Below are positions 6,997 through 48,714 of a stretch of DNA of 56,049 bases, piece after piece. The first letter of the stretch is position 1. Every line of letters starts with the position of its first letter. The position numbers and the translations under genes are program-made. The DNA comes from a virus (Duplodnaviria > Caudoviricetes): the IMG/VR virus record IMGVR_UViG_3300048121_000547, positions 1 to 56,049 of that record, one strand, 5' to 3'. Below the pieces are notes generated by a model that saw only the letters and a program-made list of their open reading frames with translations, had not been told where the DNA came from and ran no database searches.

Positions 6997-8256
6997 ATGG
7001 TAGTATTGGTAAATCGTGCTAAGATGACGACCTCGACTACGGGGACAGGCACAATTACACTGGGTTCAGTCGTAGACGGCTACCAGACCTTTGCCGCAGC
7101 GGGGGTTTCGAACGGAGATTCCGTTCGATACGTCATAGAGGACGGCACTTCGAACTGGGAAATCGGGAGCGGAACATACACCGCTTCCGGCACAACACTG
7201 TCTCGAACTCCTTCAGAGAGTAGCGGCGGCGGCTCGGCTATTGATTTGTCGGGGGATGCTATTGTTTTCATCTCGGCAATCGCCTCTGACATTCAGCCTG
7301 TTACTTTAGTAACCACCACTTTTACAGCCACGGCTGGGCAAACGGCGTTTACAGTATCGTATACGGCGGGGCTTGTTGAGGTTTTTCTTAACGGGGCAAA
7401 ACTCTCCGCGGCAGATTTCACGGCAACGAATGGCACTTCCGTTGTACTGGCCTCTGGAGCGAATGTGGGAGATACCGTTGATGTAGTAGCCTACGGCACT
7501 GTATCTGTAAGCAACACTTACACCCAAGCGCAGGCAAATGCTTTGTTTGTTGATGTAGCTGGCGATACTATGACGGGTGATCTAAATCTTGGCGATAGCA
7601 TCAAAGTGCAGTTTGGTGCTGACCAAGACTTACAAATTTATCACGATGGTTCTAATAGCTATTTACGCGATGGTGGAACAGGTGATCTAAAGGTTTTGGC
7701 TACTAATTTTGCTGTAAAAAACCTCGGCGATAGCATCAACTTTATCACAACAAATTCGTCTACAGGTGCAATGGATTTGTACCACAATGGAACGTCACGC
7801 TTGACGACCACCAGCACAGGTGTAGACATCACTGGGACTTTGACCAGCGATGATACATTTACTCTTGAAGGTGCGCATCCAGACATTGCTTTAGGAGAAA
7901 CTGATACAACAAACTTAAACACAGGTCTTACTAGTGCTTCTGGTGCTTTCCAAGTTTCAACAATAAACGATAGTTATAATTTTGGTTCTAGGGTCAATCG
8001 TTTAAATATAGATCATTCCACAGGCGACATCTCCTTCTACGAGGACACAGGCACCACTGCAAAGTTAGTTTGGGATGCATCTGCTGAACAATTACAACTA
8101 GATGCTGGCGTTGCCCTAGAACTCAACGGTTGGACAATCACAGAGTCTGGCGGCTCACTGTACTTCGCTACAGGCGGCACAAACAAAATGAAACTGGACG
8201 CATCAGGCAACCTTGATGTTGTAGGCAACGTCAATTCCAACGCAACAATCACCTAG
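6997..8256 (+). CDS. Tail fibre protein 1
   Basis: 419 aa Thr/Gly/Ser-rich modular fibre (FTATAGQTAF..VFLNG; DLQIYHDGSNS). Confidence 0.8.
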   Translation: MVVLVNRAKMTTSTTGTGTITLGSVVDGYQTFAAAGVSNGDSVRYVIEDGTSNWEIGSGTYTASGTTLSRTPSESSGGGSAIDLSGDAIVFISAIASDIQPVTLVTTTFTATAGQTAFTVSYTAGLVEVFLNGAKLSAADFTATNGTSVVLASGANVGDTVDVVAYGTVSVSNTYTQAQANALFVDVAGDTMTGDLNLGDSIKVQFGADQDLQIYHDGSNSYLRDGGTGDLKVLATNFAVKNLGDSINFITTNSSTGAMDLYHNGTSRLTTTSTGVDITGTLTSDDTFTLEGAHPDIALGETDTTNLNTGLTSASGAFQVSTINDSYNFGSRVNRLNIDHSTGDISFYEDTGTTAKLVWDASAEQLQLDAGVALELNGWTITESGGSLYFATGGTNKMKLDASGNLDVVGNVNSNATIT

Positions 8257-35680: not shown

Positions 35681-36006
35681 AACGCGACGAAGTATTAAAC
35701 ACAGCAAAAGAGCTTATCAACGGCCAACGCGCCAAAGATTACGGGGATGCTTACAACAATCATGCTCGAATTGCAGATGGATGGAACATTATAATAAGCG
35801 GAGCTTTAAAAAGCCACGGTTATCTGACCCCGGCCCACGTTACGTTGATGATGGATTGGGTTAAAACAAGCCGTCTGATAGAAACGATAGGCCATGAGGA
35901 TTCGTGGGTGGATAAAGCCGGATACACCGGGCTGGGAGCGGAATTTGTCGAGAGAGACGCGCTACCTGTAGACAAAATTATAAAGAGAATAAAAGATGAA
36001 GCTTAA
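35677..36006 (+). CDS. DUF6378-like protein
   Basis: LINGQRAKDYGD..N..RIA..W..DSWVDKAGY. Confidence 0.7.
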   Translation: MKRDEVLNTAKELINGQRAKDYGDAYNNHARIADGWNIIISGALKSHGYLTPAHVTLMMDWVKTSRLIETIGHEDSWVDKAGYTGLGAEFVERDALPVDKIIKRIKDEA

Positions 36007-37888
36007 AATGGCTACACCATCCCTGAATTCAGAGTGGGTTCCACCCGCAGAACTGCCCGATCTTACAGATGCAAAGACAATTGCTATCGATGTTGAGACC
36101 AGAGACCCAAATATCAAGAAAAACGGCCCCGGTTGGGCTGTGGGTGACGGTGAAGTGGTCGGATATGCCGTCGCAACAGCCGATTGGGCGGGTTATATCC
36201 CTACAAGACACCGCGGCGGAGGTAATTTAGACGAAAAAATCGTCAATAAATGGCTCAAAAAGGTTTTTGAGTGCCCCGCAGACAAAGTTATGCACAACGC
36301 TCAGTATGATGTGGGCTGGATCAAGCGCATGGGCTTCGAAATTAACGGTCGGATCATCGATACAATGGTTGTCGCGTCCCTTTTGGACGAAAATAAGTTT
36401 TCCTATGCACTAAACTCACTAGCTTTCGAGTTTCTAGGTCTTGCAAAGAACGAAAGCCTGCTCAGAGAGGCCGCAAAAGAATTTGGGTTCGATCCAAAGG
36501 CCGATATGTGGAAAATGCCCGCCATGTACGTCGGACCGTATGCCCAAACAGACGCCGAAGTGACCTTACAGCTATGGGATTATCTAAGAGTTGAGGTCGG
36601 AAAGCAAAATCTTTGGAATATTGTCAATCTAGAGTTGGATTTGCTCCCCTGCTTGGTCAATATGACATGGAGAGGCGTCCGCGTTGACATGGACAAGACA
36701 GAAAGAACACGCGACGCGATCCTCAAGCGAGAAAAGACCGTATTAAAAGAAATAAGGGGACTTGTTGGTAATGATGTGGAAATATGGGCGGCAAACTCTG
36801 TGGCGAAAGCCTTTGATAAGTTATCAATACCATATCCAAAGACAGAAAAGGGCGCTCCATCGTTTAAAAAGCAGTTTCTGGCCGAACATCCGGAAAAATT
36901 ACCGCAATTAATCGTTCAAGCCCGAAATCTTAACAAGACCAGCGGAACTTTTATAAATAACATCCTAAAATTCTGTCACGGCGACGGTCGAGTGCATTCG
37001 CACATCAATCAGATCAGAGGGGACGACGGCGGCACGGTCTCTGGCCGCTTTTCGATGAATAACCCCAACCTACAACAAATCCCGGCCCGCGATCCTGAAA
37101 TCGGGCCCCTTATTCGGTCATTGTTCTTGCCAGAAGAGGGCGAACAGTGGGCGTCAATCGATTACTCGCAACAAGAACCGCGCATCTTGGTTCATTATGC
37201 TCATGTATATGGCAAAAGCCGGGGGATCGCGCTCCGCGGGGTTGAAGAGTTTGTTGAGAGCTACAAAAACGATCCAAACATGGATTTTCACACAATGGTC
37301 GCTGAAATGGCAGACATCCCTCGAAAACAGGCCAAAACAATCAATCTGGGCATGATGTATGGCATGGGGGTCGCCAAACTGGCGGACCAGCTAGACATTG
37401 AAGCCAGCGAAGCCAAAGGTCTGGTGAAACAGTACCATGACCGTGTGCCATTCGTAAAAGCGTTGATGAACGGGGTTACAGAGCGCCTGAACAGCAAAGC
37501 CAGTGGCGGCGCAATAAGCTCTATCCTCGGACGCAAGTGCCGTTTTAATCTCTGGGAACCCGATTCGTTCGAAATGACCAAGGCGCTGCCATACCAAGAG
37601 GCTGTCTTGGAATATGGGGACACTTGCCGTCTCAAGCGGGCGTTTACCTACAAAGCTTTGAACAGGCTAATCCAAGCGTCTGCCGCGGATATGACAAAGA
37701 AAGCGATGGTCGATCTGTACAAAGAAGGTCATCTGCCGATGCTACAAGTGCATGACGAGCTTTGTATGTCTGTAAAGACAAAAGAAGAGGCTGAAGGTAT
37801 TGCAAAGATAATGATAAATGCAGTACCATTAGAAATCCCTAGCAAATGTGATGTTGAAGTGGGTCCAAACTGGGGAGAAGCTGTTTAG
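35996..37888 (+). CDS. polA: Family A DNA polymerase with 3'-5' exonuclease (Leu762 type)
   Basis: DVET, HNAQYD, SGRFS..PNLQQIP, DYSQQEPR, KTINLGMMYG and VHDE motifs. Confidence 0.95.
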   Translation: MKLKMATPSLNSEWVPPAELPDLTDAKTIAIDVETRDPNIKKNGPGWAVGDGEVVGYAVATADWAGYIPTRHRGGGNLDEKIVNKWLKKVFECPADKVMHNAQYDVGWIKRMGFEINGRIIDTMVVASLLDENKFSYALNSLAFEFLGLAKNESLLREAAKEFGFDPKADMWKMPAMYVGPYAQTDAEVTLQLWDYLRVEVGKQNLWNIVNLELDLLPCLVNMTWRGVRVDMDKTERTRDAILKREKTVLKEIRGLVGNDVEIWAANSVAKAFDKLSIPYPKTEKGAPSFKKQFLAEHPEKLPQLIVQARNLNKTSGTFINNILKFCHGDGRVHSHINQIRGDDGGTVSGRFSMNNPNLQQIPARDPEIGPLIRSLFLPEEGEQWASIDYSQQEPRILVHYAHVYGKSRGIALRGVEEFVESYKNDPNMDFHTMVAEMADIPRKQAKTINLGMMYGMGVAKLADQLDIEASEAKGLVKQYHDRVPFVKALMNGVTERLNSKASGGAISSILGRKCRFNLWEPDSFEMTKALPYQEAVLEYGDTCRLKRAFTYKALNRLIQASAADMTKKAMVDLYKEGHLPMLQVHDELCMSVKTKEEAEGIAKIMINAVPLEIPSKCDVEVGPNWGEAV

Positions 37889-37931: not shown

Positions 37932-37963
37932 CCCTCCTGCCTTAAACGGCAAGAGGGTTTTTT
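37932..37963 (+). terminator. Terminator after polA
   Basis: CCCTCCTGCC-TTAAAC-GGCAAGAGGG-TTTTTT. Confidence 0.8.
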
Positions 37964-38036
37964 ATTTATATAAACATATTTACAGCGCAAGTTATCTGGT
38001 GTATTTGTTAAACCCTATAACCAGAAAGGAAATAAA

Positions 38037-38312
38037 ATGGGCAACTCTTTAAGAGCCGTTATCGTTATTGATTTTGAAGCAAACACCTTCGAAGATGCAA
38101 GCGCACTTGACACGGCGATACGGAAAAAAGCAAAAACCCTTTGTGATGAGCTAGTCGATCCATCCAACACTTCTAAAGATGACTTATGTATTGTAGATCA
38201 TAAAGCTGGCGTTCTTCTTTCAGAAAGACGAGGACCAACGGGTTCAATTCACAAAATTGTTTTTAGAGGCACAAGGGGTAAAAATAAACCAAAATTGCCG
38301 GATTGGTTATAG
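38037..38312 (+). CDS. Hypothetical protein
   Basis: 91 aa, AAAGGA RBS, AT-rich upstream region. Confidence 0.7.
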   Translation: MGNSLRAVIVIDFEANTFEDASALDTAIRKKAKTLCDELVDPSNTSKDDLCIVDHKAGVLLSERRGPTGSIHKIVFRGTRGKNKPKLPDWL

Positions 38313-38326
38313 TAAAAAGGTTTTTC

Positions 38327-38355
38327 TTGCAGGTTCCCATAAACTCCTATATGGT
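38327..38355 (+). promoter_or_regulatory. Promoter of the RHH gene with two heptamer boxes
   Basis: TTGCAG-17-TATGGT; TCCCATA 38335 and TCCTATA 38345. Confidence 0.6.
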
Positions 38356-38382
38356 CGGCCGTGAAGCGACGAGGATTGCCTT

Positions 38383-38559
38383 ATGGATACTACAAAATGG
38401 AAAAGTGTTCTTGTACCAATTGAGGTTTACAAGGAAATTAAACTGGATTCCGCGGCCAACGGGCGTACAATAAGTGGACAGCTTAGAGTTATGTTCGATG
38501 TATATGCTAAAAACCGCGATAAGAACGTTGACACATCCCATAAAGTCGCGTATAAATGA
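38383..38559 (+). CDS. 58-aa ribbon-helix-helix-like regulator, not in the ORF track
   Basis: GAGGA RBS; MDTTKWKSVLVPIEVYKEIKLDSAANGRTISGQLRVMF fits the beta-helix-GxT/S-helix pattern. Confidence 0.7.
   Translation: MDTTKWKSVLVPIEVYKEIKLDSAANGRTISGQLRVMFDVYAKNRDKNVDTSHKVAYK
38528..38556 (+). promoter_or_regulatory. Near-consensus sigma70 promoter of the sRNA
   Basis: TTGACA-17-TATAAA, with TCCCATA 38536 and TCGCGTA 38546. Confidence 0.8.
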
Positions 38560-38562
38560 CTT

Positions 38563-38626
38563 AGACATTCTCCAATGTTTGATAAATGTTAAAACCCTCA
38601 GTTCATGTCCTGACTGAGGGTTTTTT
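38563..38626 (+). ncRNA. Putative anti-RBS small RNA
   Basis: Own promoter; 5' hairpin with CTCC loop; terminator AAAACCCTCAGT/ACTGAGGGTTTT plus T-run; no ORF; seed complementary to early-gene RBSs. Confidence 0.75.
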
Positions 38627-38644
38627 CTTTTCTAGAAATAAAGG

Positions 38645-38673
38645 TTGACTTTATCCCATATCATTTTTATTCT
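38645..38673 (+). promoter_or_regulatory. Early promoter
   Basis: TTGACT-17-TATTCT with TCCCATA 38654. Confidence 0.75.
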
Positions 38674-38699
38674 CTAATTAGTAAAACAGGAGAATGTTA

Positions 38700-39089
38700 A
38701 TGGGACTTGATATGTTTCTAATGGGTGAGAAATTCATCCCCACGCATGACAATAAACACACGCGGCCTACCGTCGATGGATACAAAGTGTCCAGCACAAT
38801 TCTCGATTTGGGACAGTGGCGCAAGCATTGGGCTCTGCATGAGTGCATCGAACAAGATTACGTTAAGTCTGGCGGGCGCATTTTGCTAGAGCCGGAGTTC
38901 CTGCTTGAAATTGCTGACGCAGTTAAGCAAGGTAATTTGCCCGAAGCAAACTATTCACCCCAAACAGACGCCTTTCACAAAGAACCGAAAGAGGTTGCAA
39001 AGACCGTAAAGATTTTTCGCGATGCTTACGATTGGGTCAACCGAGAAGACGGCTTTTGGCGCAGCGTTTATTATGAAGGAAGCTGGTAA
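38700..39089 (+). CDS. Hypothetical early protein
   Basis: MGLDM..WRKHWALH..YYEGSW; ATG 38700 fits the GGAG RBS (alternative start 38694). Confidence 0.75.
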   Translation: MGLDMFLMGEKFIPTHDNKHTRPTVDGYKVSSTILDLGQWRKHWALHECIEQDYVKSGGRILLEPEFLLEIADAVKQGNLPEANYSPQTDAFHKEPKEVAKTVKIFRDAYDWVNREDGFWRSVYYEGSW

Positions 39090-41570: not shown

Positions 41571-41648
41571 CTTTCTCCCATATTTGTGTTAAGATGGTTT
41601 TGAGGGTTAGGACAACTCTCAAACGCTTTTTGACAATTTGGAGAATGT
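41567..41648 (+). promoter_or_regulatory. Early promoter + 5' stem-loop + TTGGAGAATGT RBS
   Basis: TTGACT-17-TAAGAT; TCCCATA 41576; hairpin 41599-41623; motif 41638-41648. Confidence 0.75.
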
Positions 41649-41651
41649 ACT

Positions 41652-41882
41652 ATGAAGTATAAAGCTATGGTAAACCCAATGGGGGGAACTTGCTGGGCAA
41701 TCGCTAAAACCAAAGGCGAAGCCATGAGGATGCTGAAAGGTGAACTCAAAAGAAGCTGGTCACACCTGTTCGATATCAAAGGATGGCTTAAATCAGGAGA
41801 AGCAACCTGCGATATATACGAGGATGCCGGAACCGATAGCCATAACGATGATAAATACATCGAAACAGTCCCGTTGATATAA
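41652..41882 (+). CDS. Hypothetical early protein
   Basis: 76 aa behind a dedicated promoter and RBS. Confidence 0.75.
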   Translation: MKYKAMVNPMGGTCWAIAKTKGEAMRMLKGELKRSWSHLFDIKGWLKSGEATCDIYEDAGTDSHNDDKYIETVPLI

Positions 41883-43364: not shown

Positions 43365-43400
43365 TCCCATATGCTTATATGGCGTAAACTAATTGGAGAA
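43347..43400 (+). promoter_or_regulatory. Early promoter with tandem TCCCATA boxes and ATTGGAGAA RBS
   Basis: TTGATC-17-TATGCT; boxes at 43355 and 43365. Confidence 0.65.
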
Positions 43401-43404
43401 GGTT

Positions 43405-43554
43405 ATGACCGATAAGAAAGAACAAACCCCTGCCCAAAAAATCCGCCACCAGTTGAGCGTGTTTCAAATGATGATGCTGGCTGGCCGTGATGAGGCGGCG
43501 ATAAAATGTTTAAAAAACCTGTATCAAATAGCCGATGATTTGGAGGCCGCGTGA
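43405..43554 (+). CDS. 49-aa hypothetical protein, not in the ORF track
   Basis: GGAG RBS; MTDKKEQTPAQKIRHQLSVFQMMMLAG... Confidence 0.65.
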   Translation: MTDKKEQTPAQKIRHQLSVFQMMMLAGRDEAAIKCLKNLYQIADDLEAA

Positions 43555-43845: not shown

Positions 43846-43937
43846 ACTTTCTAAAGTTTTTGCTTGCAGTCTATGCGACAATATGCGAGAAAGAGGGCGG
43901 GGCTATCCTGCCCTTTTACTTTTGGAGAATGTAAAAC

Positions 43938-45068
43938 ATGACACATAATATTGAAAACAGCAAAAACACCCTGACCGCACTTATGATGAAAGTGCAGGAC
44001 CAAGCCGCAAGATCGGCGGATTATCTGGCCCCAACAAACGATTTGCAAAAAACCACCACTTTGGATGGCAAACCCCAGATTGTTATTGAGGCCAACCGGG
44101 GTGTGCCGACAAAACGTTTTGACATAAACGATACAGCCTTTGGTCAAATCGCTACACATGCCGGGATCGACACCCGTACAGCCCGCCGTTTGCAGTCTAA
44201 TTATCCCCGGGAATTCGACAATTTGACCAACGCTATCTGGCAAAAAGAACCGACCCGCCGCATGATCCGCACCCATGCCGATGATCGGTTTGATACTGAC
44301 GGCACTGCGCGGGCTTTTGTTTCTGACAAATTCAAAACTTTTGATAACGTCAATTTGCTTGAAGCCTGCCTTCCCCAGCTGATCGATAACCCGGCACAGT
44401 TTCAAGTTGTGTCCGCCGATGTTTCAGAAAAGCGGATGTACCTACGTTTAAAATCTTTGGAGCAATTGGGCACTGGTGCTAATGTCGGCGACCACATGGC
44501 AAACGGGATTGGTTTTGGCAATTCCGAAGTCGGCGCGGGATCAGTTACTGTTTATCAAATCGCTTGGACGCTGGCTTGCTTGAACGGGATGCAAACCCAA
44601 AACAAAACCCGGTCAAGCCACATCACATCCGCCCGCGATGGCGACGATTGGGGCCTTTTGTCCGATGATGCAAAAAATGCGGACAATCGGGCTTTGGAAT
44701 TGAAGCTGCGCGATTTGGTTGGGCACTATTCAAGCCGCGAAACTTTTGACGATATATGCCAGCAAATGCGCGCCGCAGCTGCGGATGTGATCGAAGGCGA
44801 GGCCACCGATGTGACCGACGTTGTCAACAATCTGGGCCGCGTCATGCAGCTGACCAAAAAAGAAAACAGCGACGTTCTAAATGGCTTGATGGCAACAATC
44901 GGTCAGGCTGGCTATGAAAACAGCCGCCCGCTTTCCCGTGCAACACTTGTGAACGCCGTGACCGCGGTATCACACCGTGCCGATATTGATGATGTTGACA
45001 CATGGCAGCAACGCGGCGGGCAGCTGCTCAATATGTCCGCCCGCGATTGGCAGCGCGTCGCCGCCTAA
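43938..45068 (+). CDS. DUF932-like protein
   Basis: 376 aa; NSEVGAGS...LACLNGM..H motif; own promoter, hairpin, RBS and terminator. Confidence 0.7.
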   Translation: MTHNIENSKNTLTALMMKVQDQAARSADYLAPTNDLQKTTTLDGKPQIVIEANRGVPTKRFDINDTAFGQIATHAGIDTRTARRLQSNYPREFDNLTNAIWQKEPTRRMIRTHADDRFDTDGTARAFVSDKFKTFDNVNLLEACLPQLIDNPAQFQVVSADVSEKRMYLRLKSLEQLGTGANVGDHMANGIGFGNSEVGAGSVTVYQIAWTLACLNGMQTQNKTRSSHITSARDGDDWGLLSDDAKNADNRALELKLRDLVGHYSSRETFDDICQQMRAAAADVIEGEATDVTDVVNNLGRVMQLTKKENSDVLNGLMATIGQAGYENSRPLSRATLVNAVTAVSHRADIDDVDTWQQRGGQLLNMSARDWQRVAA

Positions 45069-45120: not shown

Positions 45121-45203
45121 GTTTGATCTTTATAAATTTATATGCGAGAAATCTTATATCGGGCGGCTACCGTCCGACAACTTTACATTTTGGAGAATGT
45201 ACC

Positions 45204-45632
45204 ATGACACACCCAATCGAAAATATGCCTATTACACGCGGCAACTTTGTTGATGCTTTGGTGGTTGATAAAGACCAAGCGCAGGCGGATTTGGCCGCTG
45301 CTCAAAAAGCGGCAATGGACCTTATCGCAGAACGTGATCGGTTGCAGGCTGAACTGGCCGACGCTAATCGTTTTAAAGAGGGCTTTGCTAATTTGTTTGC
45401 CGATCAAATCGACGCCGCTGTAAAATCCGCCATGGTCGATTATGAAAGCGATTTTGATATTAGCGTCTATGAAAGCGAAATTCAGGAAATGGCCCGCGAT
45501 GGTTTTGATGCCAGCGACCACAGCGACGATATAGCCGACGCGGTTGGCTTTGATATGTACGATTACAAGTCTGAGGTGGCCGACATTGTTAGCGATATTT
45601 TGCGCGACGCTACGGTTAAATTGGAGGTTTAA
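45204..45632 (+). CDS. Acidic coiled-coil early protein
   Basis: Start reassigned to ATG 45204 after TTGGAGAATGT; three FD(I/A/M)xD/xY repeats; very acidic C-terminal half. Confidence 0.75.
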   Translation: MTHPIENMPITRGNFVDALVVDKDQAQADLAAAQKAAMDLIAERDRLQAELADANRFKEGFANLFADQIDAAVKSAMVDYESDFDISVYESEIQEMARDGFDASDHSDDIADAVGFDMYDYKSEVADIVSDILRDATVKLEV

Positions 45633-45880: not shown

Positions 45881-45923
45881 CGTTTTATAATATGGGATAA
45901 ACCGCATATATTGGAGAATGCAA

Positions 45924-46640
45924 ATGTTAAAGACTGTTGAAACAAGCCGCGCCCAAAAGACCAAAGGTCTGGCCGTAACCTATCGCGCCGGGTCGCAAGA
46001 GAAATTCGGCACTTGCCCGGCCAGCTGCGAATTAAACCCGTCTGGCTGTGGCGCGTCAAAGGTCGATCTGGACTATTTAAACGCGCTTTCGGATGCCGTC
46101 CCAACTAAGGGGATCGCCTTTACCTATTCCCACTTTGCGCCGATCCATTGGTTCAAGAAAAACGGGCCGGGTAAAACTGTCATAAATTACTCGTGCAAAA
46201 CTATTGCCCAAGCCGCGATTTATGTCAGCCGCAAAACCCGCGCCCTAAATGTTCCCGTTGTGGTTACTGTCGCGCTTGATTTTTGGAGCGGCCGCAAAAC
46301 TGTTGATAGTGACGGCGCGCGGTTCGTTAGATGCCCGGCCGAATATCTGCCCAAGTTTGGTTGCGCCCAATGCGGCAATGGCGACCCACTTTGCGCCCGC
46401 TTAGACCGCGATTATGTAATTGGATTTACAGCGCACGGGATCCACAAAAAGAAAGCCGCCAATCCTGACGACCCCGGCGGATGCTATGCCAGCAGCGGCC
46501 ATGTGGTCCTGCATTGGGAAGCCACGGCCGATCAAGCGCAGGATGAGAGGGACGCGGACAAGGTGACCCGGTTTGCTAAAAGCTTAGCCCCCCGCACGAT
46601 ATTGCGCCACCATATCGCCGGGGATATTGGCGACGATTAA
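45924..46640 (+). CDS. Cys-rich gp88/DUF7227-like protein (possible Fe-S)
   Basis: TCPASC..C, FTYSH, CPA..CAQC..LC..R..IGF.AHG, CYA..HW, LRHHIAGD; alternative start 45918. Confidence 0.65.
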   Translation: MLKTVETSRAQKTKGLAVTYRAGSQEKFGTCPASCELNPSGCGASKVDLDYLNALSDAVPTKGIAFTYSHFAPIHWFKKNGPGKTVINYSCKTIAQAAIYVSRKTRALNVPVVVTVALDFWSGRKTVDSDGARFVRCPAEYLPKFGCAQCGNGDPLCARLDRDYVIGFTAHGIHKKKAANPDDPGGCYASSGHVVLHWEATADQAQDERDADKVTRFAKSLAPRTILRHHIAGDIGDD

Positions 46641-47250: not shown

Positions 47251-48714
47251 ATGAATGTTAACCTAAATCCGATCCAACAAGAGAAGGCCCTGAAGCTTCA
47301 ATTGAGGCTCGCCCAAATCGCCAAGAACGAGGGTTGTCAGGAAAACTTTTTGGACTTTGTTAGGTCCCAGTGGCCGGAGTTTATTGCTGGTAGGCATCAT
47401 AAAATAATTGCGGACAAGCTTGAGCGGGTCGCGAGCGGCGAACTAAAGCGTTTGATTATCAACATGGCTCCGCGGCACACGAAGAGTGAGTTTGCTTCGT
47501 TTTTGTTTCCTGCTTGGATGATGGGCAAGAACCCGAGTATGAAGATTATTCAGGCGACTCACACGACGGAGTTGGCTGTTAACTTTGGTCGGAAGACTAA
47601 GAACCTTTTGGACATGGACAGTTACAAGGAGGTTTTCCCTGACGTTAAGTTGGCTGCGGACAGTAAGGCGAGTGGTCGTTGGGACACGAGTGCTGGTGGT
47701 ATGTATTATGCTGTTGGTGTTGGTTCGAATTTGGCTGGTCGTGGTGGTGATTTAATTATCATTGACGACCCTCATTCTGAGCAGACGGCGATGAGTGCTC
47801 ATGGTTTTGAGGATGCTTGGGATTGGTATACTGGTGGTCCTCGGCAGCGTTTACAGCCGGGTGGTTCTATAGTTTTGGTACAGACTCGTTGGTCAGAGAA
47901 GGACATGACGGGTCAGTTATTGCGAGCGATGGCGAAGGACCCTTTATCGGATCAGTGGGAGGTTGTTGAGTTACCTGCTATTTTTGAGGATGAGACTCCT
48001 TGTTGGCCTGAGTACTGGAGTTTAGAGGATTTAACCGCGGTCCGCGCATCTATACCTCCGAGCAAGTGGAATGCTCAGTATCAGCAGAATCCTACTGGTG
48101 AGGAGAATGCGATCATTCCTCGGGAGTGGTGGCGTCGTTGGGACCGTGAGGTTGTTCCTCAGTTAGAGTATGTGATTCAGAGTTATGACACTGCGTTTAG
48201 CAAGCGTGAGACGAGTGACTTTAGTGCTATTACGACGTGGGGTGTATTTTATCCGAACGAGGGTGGTTCGGGTCCTAATTTAATATTGTTGGACAGTAAG
48301 AAGGGTCGCTGGGATTTTCCAGAATTAAAGTCTATAGCGTTTGAGGAGTATAAGTTTTGGGACCCCGACACTGTAATTATTGAGGCGAAGGCGAGTGGTT
48401 TACCTTTGACTCACGAGCTTCGCAATGTTGGTATACCTGTTGTAAATTTCACGCCTAGTCGTGGTAATGACAAGGTTAGCCGGGTACATGCCATTAGTCC
48501 TATGTTAGAGTCTGGCATGGTTTGGGCTCCTGACAAGCCTTGGGCTGATGAGTTAATTGAGGAGGTTGCGGCGTTTCCGAACGGCGAGCATGACGATTTG
48601 GTTGACAGCATGACCCAAGCTCTGATGAGGTATCGTCAGGGTAATTTTGTCCAGTTACCAACAGATGATTGGCAAAACGAAGAAGAATCTGTTAAGGTGC
48701 GGGCATATTATTGA
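47251..48714 (+). CDS. terL: Terminase large subunit
   Basis: NMAPRHTKS, GRGGDLIIIDDP, QTRW, SYDTA, IEAKASG and HDDLVDS motifs. Confidence 0.95.
   Translation: MNVNLNPIQQEKALKLQLRLAQIAKNEGCQENFLDFVRSQWPEFIAGRHHKIIADKLERVASGELKRLIINMAPRHTKSEFASFLFPAWMMGKNPSMKIIQATHTTELAVNFGRKTKNLLDMDSYKEVFPDVKLAADSKASGRWDTSAGGMYYAVGVGSNLAGRGGDLIIIDDPHSEQTAMSAHGFEDAWDWYTGGPRQRLQPGGSIVLVQTRWSEKDMTGQLLRAMAKDPLSDQWEVVELPAIFEDETPCWPEYWSLEDLTAVRASIPPSKWNAQYQQNPTGEENAIIPREWWRRWDREVVPQLEYVIQSYDTAFSKRETSDFSAITTWGVFYPNEGGSGPNLILLDSKKGRWDFPELKSIAFEEYKFWDPDTVIIEAKASGLPLTHELRNVGIPVVNFTPSRGNDKVSRVHAISPMLESGMVWAPDKPWADELIEEVAAFPNGEHDDLVDSMTQALMRYRQGNFVQLPTDDWQNEEESVKVRAYY

Follow-up and report, generated by a model that had tools for sequence, protein, structure and literature searches.

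A conserved candidate small RNA of uncultured marine phages whose predicted anti-Shine-Dalgarno seed covaries with extended ribosome-binding sites

The virus record IMGVR_UViG_3300048121_000547 of the IMG/VR database (56,049 bp, completeness estimate 96%), the whole of which was analysed and is referred to here as the window, carries just 3' of its replication genes a compact unit consisting of a promoter-like element, a small hairpin and an intrinsic terminator. Comparison with related phages indicates that this unit specifies a real, conserved and new family of small RNA (sRNA), which very probably acts as a trans-acting translational repressor of those phage genes whose ribosome-binding sites (RBSs) carry an extended complement, or tag, of the sRNA seed. 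The anatomy of the unit, its conservation, its complementarity to RBSs and the covariation of seed and tag were obtained by computation; from these we infer its transcription, its pairing in vivo, repression as the direction of the effect, and its timing. An earlier reading of the window (the original prediction) had proposed a trans-acting sRNA with an anti-Shine-Dalgarno (anti-SD) loop that switches off an early/host-takeover regulon. The anti-SD sRNA with a multi-gene regulon passed the comparative test laid out below, whereas the label 'early/host-takeover' found no support, the target products belonging to DUF7227, to phrog_1362 or to no family.

The unit is composed of the following elements:
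38528-38556, plus strand: promoter-like element of the sRNA, read from the sequence, with -35 TTGACA at 38528-38533, a spacer of 17 nucleotides (nt) and -10 TATAAA at 38551-38556
38563-38632, plus strand: predicted non-coding sRNA of about 70 nt, its putative start 7 nt past the -10 and its end in the T-run
38563-38580, plus strand: 5' hairpin AGACATT-CTCC-AATGTTT, from fold and conservation
38591-38632, plus strand: intrinsic terminator, a stem at 38591-38624 (13 pairs, loop of 8) followed by the T-run

The seed ACATTCTCCAAT, also written ACATTCTCCAA(T), occupies positions 38565-38576. The 70-nt RNA is predicted to fold into the small 5' hairpin and the long terminator hairpin, with a minimum free energy (MFE) of -22.0 kcal/mol and a z-score of -4.9, and none of 200 shuffled sequences was as stable. 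The CUCC of the 5' hairpin loop has an unpaired probability of 1.0, in agreement with the CUCC-loop fold of the original prediction, whose letters and positions for promoter, hairpin, terminator, seed and matches all proved correct on re-reading. Taken alone, the 5' hairpin amounts to -2.3 kcal/mol, and the flanks of the seed sit in its stem. Of the promoter, which had been called near-consensus, the TTGACA and the 17-nt spacer stand; the -10 lacks the T at position 6, and because TATAAA is without this usual final T the promoter is missing from the list returned by the consensus promoter scan. Its spacer holds two heptamer boxes, TCCCATA (38536-38542) and TCGCGTA (38546-38552). The promoter is, moreover, not in DNA free of open reading frames (ORFs): the original prediction missed that it lies in the last codons of a conserved gene for a ribbon-helix-helix (RHH) protein at 38383-38559. 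No Rfam family matched the sRNA at its gathering score, and the best of the 26 matches obtained at E up to 10 remained far below threshold.

Six RBSs of the window are complementary to the seed and are regarded here as its predicted targets (gene products in amino acids, aa):
38689-38697, plus strand: RBS GGAGAATGT of gene 38700-39089 (129 aa, no family), 9 nt plus a G-U pair, duplex -17.6 kcal/mol
41638-41648, plus strand: RBS TTGGAGAATGT of gene 41652-41882 (76 aa), 11/11, duplex -18.1 kcal/mol
43392-43400, plus strand: RBS ATTGGAGAA of gene 43405-43554 (49 aa), 9 nt, duplex -15.1 kcal/mol
43922-43932, plus strand: RBS TTGGAGAATGT of gene 43938-45068 (376 aa, phrog_1362), 11/11
45190-45200, plus strand: RBS TTGGAGAATGT of gene 45204-45632 (142 aa), 11/11, duplex -16.7 kcal/mol
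45910-45920, plus strand: RBS ATTGGAGAATG of gene 45924-46640 (238 aa, DUF7227), 11 nt

Exact copies of TTGGAGAATGT occur on the plus strand at 41638, 43922 and 45190 and on the minus strand a single time, at 38565-38575. Copies with one mismatch start at 43393 and 45911, and allowing up to one mismatch the window holds 6 copies against 1.14 expected (standard deviation, sd, 1.04), a count reached in 0 of 100 shuffles. The shorter matches that had been claimed at 38689 and 43392 are present as well, before ATG 38700 and ATG 43405. All six pairings stop 2-5 nt upstream of the start codon. The seed-target duplexes are worth -15.1 to -18.6 kcal/mol and opening the 5' hairpin costs 2.3, compared with -6.4 kcal/mol for the generic 16S tail on the same Shine-Dalgarno sequences (SDs). 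Among 52 GGAG-type RBS candidates in the window, 5 show at least 8 nt of contiguous complementarity, all of them between 38.6 and 46 kb. None of the RBSs of structural or replication genes in the window reaches 9 nt of complementarity to the seed, in line with the original prediction that the extended motif is absent from them, and the two other 9-mer matches in the window (16339 and 44551) fall inside ORFs. A sliding RNA duplex scan of the whole window proved too noisy to rank targets, the known ones coming 2nd, 3rd, 7th and 12th among about 18,600 windows.

Each target gene had been described as the first after a promoter. This applies to three of the six, which are preceded by promoter-like sites in the consensus scan (38645, 41567 and 45862); the remaining three have TCCCATA/TATGCGA boxes only. 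In close relatives, a cassette made of a CCCATA box followed by ATTGGAGAATGT precedes at least seven unrelated reading frames, and the tag therefore behaves as a portable address. The tag of the window also holds an ATG one base past GGAGA: at 43929 this ATG is followed immediately by TAA and forms a minimal start-stop (43929-43934), and at 38694 it is in frame with the annotated start.

Conservation of the unit was assessed in related IMG/VR loci, cited below by their L numbers where they have to be told apart. Of 68 assessable relatives, with a DNA polymerase (DNAP) 60-93% identical to that of the window, at least 34 have the unit under strict criteria at the same place, after the RHH gene and 3' of the DNAP gene. 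Not one letter of the promoter or of the hairpin AGACATTCTCCAA(A)TGTTT has changed in the six close relatives, whose DNAP is 92-93% identical, and the same six genomes show many silent changes in the RHH codons, a variable spacer before the terminator and compensatory changes in the terminator stem. A pattern scan of IMG/VR for the hairpin returned 54 loci, 50 with the TCCCATAAA promoter box and 4 chance matches. These 50 window-type loci represent 17 distinct sRNA versions, in which at least four unrelated terminator modules and variable spacers follow an identical hairpin. A second scan, anchored on the terminator only and thus not presupposing the seed, gave 53 loci; 15 are unrelated coding sequence and the other 38 carry the exact seed hairpin (38/38). 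This pattern of sequence conservation indicates that the seed is under purifying selection.

In distant relatives, at 60-78% DNAP identity, the RHH gene is likewise followed by a promoter with the TCCCATA/TCGCATA boxes, by 40-70 nt of non-coding DNA with a CTCC-type motif and by a strong terminator. The orthologous promoter element reads TTGnnn..TCCCATA-N3-TCGC(G/T)TAT in these genomes, and the distance from the -10 to the first hairpin is constant across relatives. In the largest subgroup, characterized by the seed CTCCGTAG and represented by 53 IMG/VR loci in a pattern scan, a variable, covarying 5' hairpin is followed by the single-stranded linker (C)TCCGTAGT and the terminator. An alignment of 13 sequences of distant relatives shows double compensatory changes in 6 of the 12 terminator pairs; RNAalifold recovered only the terminator from the distant-relative alignment and did not recover the 5' hairpins, the loops of which differ in length.

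Covariation of the seed with the RBS motif in relatives, the check put forward with the original prediction, turned out positive: the 38 close-relative seeds are identical, and the covariation spans at least six seed classes, orthologous genes included. The seeds of relatives differ (CTCCAAT, CTCCGTAG, CTCCGTG, CTCCATG, CCTCATAAAA, CTTCGTAG and CTCCCGTAG), and the tags in each genome differ to fit. The classes, each with a matching tag that recurs within the same genome, are:
Window: seed ACATTCTCCAAT, tag ATTGGAGAATGT, in extended form (A)TTGGAGAATG(T)
L028 and L046: seed TTGTTCTCCAATA, tag TATTGGAGAAC(AA), 7 and 5 sites
L014, L015, L021, L018 and L022: seed CTCCGTAG, tag CTACGGAG, 4-5 sites in L015, L021 and L022
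L047: seed CTCCGTGT, tag ACACGGAGA
L063: seed CTCCATG, tag CATGGAG, 5 sites
L054 and L057: seed CCTCATAAAAA, tag TTTTTATGAGG, the SD core itself being different
L020: seed CTCCCGTAG, tag ACGGGAG

Tags of the natural classes other than that of the window include CTACGGAG, CATGGAG and TTTTATGAGG, and L015 holds a 12-mer, TACGGAGAACAT. To assess the covariation quantitatively, we counted RBS-positioned sites with at least 8 nt of exact complementarity that include the SD core; this core-anchored matrix replaced an 8-mer matrix without the SD-core requirement and a census of the commonest RBS 7-mers, which were dominated by chance and false starts. For ten hand-picked class representatives, the diagonal of own sRNA against own RBSs sums to 31 compared with a mean of 9.9 (sd 4.1) under permutation, and 68 of 3,628,800 permutations reach it (p about 2e-5). 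When L028 is left out the diagonal is 24 against 7.1, and 23 of 362,880 permutations reach this value.

The same behaviour is seen at RBSs of orthologous genes. The 376-aa gene (43938 in the window) carries the tag TTGGAGAATGT in the window (11 nt), TTGGAGAAC in L028 (9 nt) and ACACGGAGA in L047 (9 nt), and in L033 it carries CTACGAAGG together with the seed CCTTCGTAG, so that a G-to-A change in the SD core is matched by a C-to-T change in the sRNA. For the DUF7227 gene (45924 in the window) the sites are ATTGGAGAATG in the window (11 nt) and CAACTACGGAG in L021 (11 nt), the latter fitting the L021 sRNA, and for a 140-aa gene they are TTCAACTACGGAG in L021 (13 nt) and TTTTTATGAGG in L057 (11 nt). 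When 23 orthologous sites are each compared with the sRNA of the same genome, the longest match averages 8.5 nt and is at least 9 nt long in 13 of them; for cross-class combinations, of which 619 pairs were scored, the average falls to 5.45 nt and the share with at least 9 nt to 2.4%. This comparison leaves out L017, L034, L077, L080 and L082, which have no defined sRNA, and L073, whose 'unit' has no promoter box, and the DUF7227 site of L046 was scored from the start at 7993 instead of the automatically chosen one.

Taken together, we consider it likely that positions 38563-38632 specify a trans-acting anti-SD sRNA that represses the translation of RBS-tagged phage cassette genes. In the mechanism we propose, the host RNA polymerase would start the sRNA at the conserved promoter in the tail of the RHH gene, and the sRNA's own intrinsic terminator would end the transcript. 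The anti-SD seed would be displayed by the 5' domain, where CUCC occupies the loop of a weak hairpin and the flanks should open easily, and it would pair over 9-11 nt with the private extended RBS tag (A)TTGGAGAATG(T). At least six cassette genes located between the replication module and the terminase gene putatively carry this tag, 2-5 nt ahead of their start codons. Pairing would mask the SD, block binding of the 30S subunit and lower translation of the tagged genes, and genes with an ordinary SD would escape. Established sRNA rules predict that such pairing, which includes the SD and stops 2-5 nt short of the start codon, inside the 30S footprint, represses initiation. The RHH protein and the sRNA may further form a single module that restrains or silences the cassette genes at two levels, transcription and translation; we read them as one because boxes of the TCCCATA type occur in both the sRNA promoter and the target promoters, and because the RHH gene always adjoins the sRNA promoter. 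Such an sRNA might serve as a temporal switch, in carrier-state control or in immunity.

Several observations weigh against this reading. The -10 is imperfect (TATAAA in the window, TACAAA in many relatives) and the consensus scan omits the sRNA promoter; the same scan finds 16 promoter-like sites in the region against 15.5 expected, which is no enrichment. The ACATT portion of the seed is paired within the 5' hairpin. Sites with at least 10 nt of complementarity number 4 in the window compared with a shuffle mean of 1.16 and a maximum of 6, a modest excess, and those with at least 9 nt number 8 against 4.4; as these counts are not clearly above the shuffles, our case does not rest on them. 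About half of the RHH-bearing relatives (34/68) are without a detectable unit at this place, and the cultured relatives DSL-LC04 and HTVC027P, in which genes are packed after the DNAP gene, do not have it. The ten representatives of the permutation were picked by hand, after the data had been seen, from 42 loci with a scored unit; the own-genome scores in its matrix are 0 for L048, 0 for L029 and 1 for L052, and the short loci L003-L005 and L007 show no targets. Six of the 23 orthologous sites match their own sRNA over fewer than 7 nt. No decisive G-U wobble was encountered, and the loci with the seeds CTCTGTAG/CTCTATAG (L029, L040 and L052) have no matching CTACGGAG tags. Watson-Crick covariation alone does not separate RNA pairing from a single DNA motif present in two orientations. 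Finally, contigs from RNA libraries cover 38324-38654 and run across the terminator, but they reveal no transcript ends, strand or abundance, derive mostly from relatives at 90-95% and may hold DNA; four of the 10 runs (4 studies, small shares) were compared, X2, X4 and X6 belonging to one marine metatranscriptome study and X1 being an RNA library by guess.

The unit could alternatively act in cis, as the 3' untranslated region (UTR) of the replication/RHH transcript or a 5' leader arising by premature termination, with an anti-SD stretch that pairs with RBSs on the same read-through transcript, or as a regulated attenuator, a free 70-nt RNA being a by-product. Such an arrangement is suggested by the RHH ORF running into the promoter, by the terminator also closing the upstream operon, and by ten relatives (L014, L015, L021, L030, L031, L038, L043, L050, L059 and L061) in which an RBS and its gene come directly after the terminator and no second promoter intervenes; the next gene of the window has its 9-nt match only about 115 nt downstream, and the RNA-library contigs cross the terminator. 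We nevertheless regard regulation in cis as unlikely. Past the terminator the window has a promoter-like site of its own for the next gene (38645-38673, plus strand, TTGACT-17-TATTCT with TCCCATA in the spacer, from the consensus scan), and all targets but one are separated from the unit by 3-7 kb, with promoter-like or box elements and terminators of their own in front of them. In those attenuator-like relatives that have a gene directly after the terminator, the RBS of that gene lacks extended complementarity and shares the 4-nt core only, which places the targets elsewhere and argues that the sRNA acts in trans, or at least at a distance. By reading, the 28-nt 5' part repeats no 5-mer of the terminator 3' arm ACTGAGGGTTTT from which an antiterminator could form, and the MFE and centroid folds both keep the terminator. 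The promoter, moreover, is conserved across clades.

It is quite improbable that a real sRNA of this kind has another outcome, for example that it stabilises or activates the tagged mRNAs, perhaps by opening structure in the 5' UTR, or that it mainly serves host targets or competition for ribosomes and the phage tags are secondary. More than one function would be conceivable for the CTCCGTAG group, in which conservation extends to the terminator loop and this loop has matches at further sites; however, the pairing covers the SD and ends close to the start, a position that blocks initiation by established sRNA rules, and the covariation is with the RBS tags of the phage itself.

An explanation at the level of DNA would hold that the tag is a double-stranded site, used by a phage DNA-binding protein or in cassette recombination, that overlaps the RBS, and that the 'seed' is simply one inverted copy of it. 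One DNA word in two orientations would account for the Watson-Crick covariation equally well, the tags occur in repeated promoter-plus-RBS cassettes before unrelated genes, and box motifs of this phage group are found in both orientations. Yet the target-sense copies are all on the coding strand, 2-5 nt before starts and with an SD core, while the single antisense copy is always in the promoter-hairpin-terminator unit at a conserved place. The RBSs match shifted, overlapping sub-stretches of the seed (7-13 nt), as expected for RNA pairing and unlike a fixed protein site, and the seed of the CTCCGTAG group forms the single-stranded stretch that connects a covarying hairpin to the terminator, all of which makes the DNA explanation very unlikely. 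Least credible of all is that an ordinary terminator region complements a repeated RBS cassette by mere coincidence, a reading that could draw on in-window counts of at least 9 and at least 10 nt that are not far above shuffles but is contradicted by conservation, synteny, covariation in multiple classes and the TTGGAGAATGT count that 0 of 100 shuffles reached.

Among described regulators, the c4 RNA of phages P1 and P7 is the closest known system. Processed out of the transcript that also carries its target, it regulates a single operon (ant/icd) of a temperate phage. The window unit differs in being separate, with its own promoter and terminator and one seed for at least six dispersed tagged targets; these are 0.1-7.3 kb from the window sRNA behind their own promoter-like or box elements, and the window phage shows no sign of lysogeny genes. 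According to the part of a 2025 review of phage sRNAs that deals with c4 (immI), this phage RNA blocks an RBS and its specificity differs between relatives (PMC12197685). The likeness thus consists in a phage small RNA that pairs around a phage RBS, with the specificities of RNA and target changing in step. The Rfam C4 model is not among the 26 matches to the window sRNA at E up to 10.

In RsaE/RoxS and RNAIII of S. aureus and in 6C of Actinobacteria, a CUCC/UCCC loop or single strand seeds pairing with SDs and the RNA has a Rho-independent terminator. The window sRNA resembles these in its C-rich loop seed for several SDs and its terminator; they, however, use the generic SD and have host targets, whereas the window sRNA adds 5-7 flanking nt as a private tag. 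It belongs to none of these families; the model of RsaE/RoxS (RF01820) scores 19.2 bits against a gathering score of 79 (E 0.4). The RegA protein of phage T4 represses translation of many non-late mRNAs at their initiation regions with loose sequence recognition; it is likewise a phage-encoded translational repressor of multiple mRNAs, but the factor in the window would be an RNA with base-pair specificity. PeSL elements of T4-type phages are mobile promoter/stem-loop cassettes before variable accessory genes, and we know of no complementary sRNA for them. They share with the window the repeated cassettes of promoter, 5' structure and RBS, and differ in that the RBS of the window cassette would be the address of an sRNA.

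In the parts of the 2025 review that were consulted, VpdS, PreS, 24B_1, the PAK_P4 antisense RNAs, sar and OOP are listed, along with aQ, IsrK, AgvB, AsxR and c4, and among these listed RNAs there is no multi-target anti-SD regulator of a virulent phage's own genes (PMC12197685). A full-text literature search yielded no description of the window sRNA or of an sRNA in this phage group: PMC9599517 does not mention sRNA, promoter or terminator, and PMC12753301 contains none of the terms sRNA, non-coding or small RNA. The only transcriptome of a distant relative is that of HTVC027P, a phage without this unit (PMC12753301).

If correct, the proposed repression would mean that a dedicated RNA controls translation of a block of phage genes through a private extension of the SD, adding a post-transcriptional layer in widespread uncultured marine phages that are distant relatives of HTVC023P-type pelagiphages. 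It would account for conserved intergenic DNA and odd extended RBSs in these viromes, and the at least six natural, distinct sRNA/RBS pairs would serve as compensatory controls and possibly as orthogonal riboregulator parts. A more far-reaching and rather doubtful proposal is that the seed/tag pairs are naturally orthogonal address codes which diverge between co-circulating lineages of an abundant lytic marine phage group. Each phage would translate its accessory cassettes under a private RNA lock that confers heteroimmunity or competition at the RNA level between virulent phages; the RHH protein would be the transcriptional half of the module, and some members of the family would reach further targets through another seed, placed in the terminator loop. 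Were this true, the lock would silence a co-infecting relative, or would itself escape silencing by that relative.

The terminator loop of the CTCCGTAG subgroup is conserved as GGTTGCCCCC or CTTGCCCGC and could possibly be a second seed. The DUF7227 gene (10-11 nt) or, in other cases, a different gene has the reverse complement of this loop at its RBS or start, the sites being L015:15322-15332, L052:13830-13840, L043:14600-14609 and L050:10595-10602; the reverse complement also lies about 23 nt before the RHH start in L014, L015 and L021. For the terminator loop of the window itself, nothing convincing as a second seed emerged among the window sites. Further terminators of relatives are related to seeds and tags: in L114 and L122 the terminator stem of the sRNA is built of CCTCCAAT and ATTGGAGG, so that an arm with anti-SD sequence pairs with one resembling a target, and at L058:5491-5524 the terminator loop carries CTCCATGGAG, two RBSs of L058 reading CATGGAG.

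With regard to the genomic context, essentially all genes of the window are on the plus strand. The family-A DNA polymerase gene (35996-37888) encodes a protein with 49-56% identity to the polymerases of phage DSL-LC04 and of HTVC023P-type pelagiphages, and function-unassigned genes run from the sRNA unit to the large terminase gene at 47251. Neither a nucleotide search with the sRNA region nor a tblastn search with the RHH protein returned a match among 50,697 phage records; the window therefore has no cultured close relative in this set, and the nearest named phages are DSL-LC04 and HTVC027P. The neighbouring gene that had previously not been annotated is:
38383-38559, plus strand: 58-aa ribbon-helix-helix (Arc/CopG-like) gene, from the ORF listing and homologues in relatives

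A homologue of this RHH gene lies directly 3' of the polymerase gene in 71 of 80 related IMG/VR loci. The Pfam model PF07878 (RHH_5) is matched by 21 of 22 family members (best E 3.8e-8), the window copy staying under the cut-off at E 0.012, and comparison with the PDB gave weak matches to the Arc repressor. Conservation of the protein is limited to its first ~45 residues, and its last 11 codons overlap the sRNA promoter. The RHH frame of L028, L054 and L063 has its stop codon within TTGAC, the -35 of the promoter that comes next. In the window clade the frame continues to a stop at the -10 of the sRNA promoter, which is why the promoter appears to lie 'inside' an ORF; together, the two arrangements argue that the nucleotide conservation at this place is not due to the protein. 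Two mechanically called ORFs, 38347-38568 (minus strand, 73 aa) and 38474-38617 (plus strand, 47 aa), overlap the RHH gene and the sRNA and are treated as spurious because the conserved frame is the plus-strand frame of the RHH gene.

The heptamer boxes TCCCATA, TCGCGTA and TCGCATA recur in or beside many promoter-like sites of the window (38536-38552, 38654, 41576, 43355 and, inverted, ~45896), and in some relatives (L033, L040 and L052) they form a palindrome around the -35 (GTATGCGAT..ATCGCATAC). They are likely the operator of the RHH protein. Many relatives (L014-L016, L021, L023-L025, L027, L031, L033, L040, L043, L050 and L052) contain between the RHH gene and the sRNA promoter an additional small ORF with zinc-ribbon-like CPxC...C motifs, which the window clade does not have. 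Contigs of close relatives join across 37958-38321 and 38697-39087 and so lack a 91-aa gene (38037-38312) and the 129-aa gene (38700-39089), respectively; these two genes are gained and lost as cassettes. The tag of the L020 class occurs in the form CTACGGGAG at RBSs in L012, L013, L020 and L034, a sequence that we take to be part of the universal 16S rRNA site of the 341F primer, probably by coincidence.

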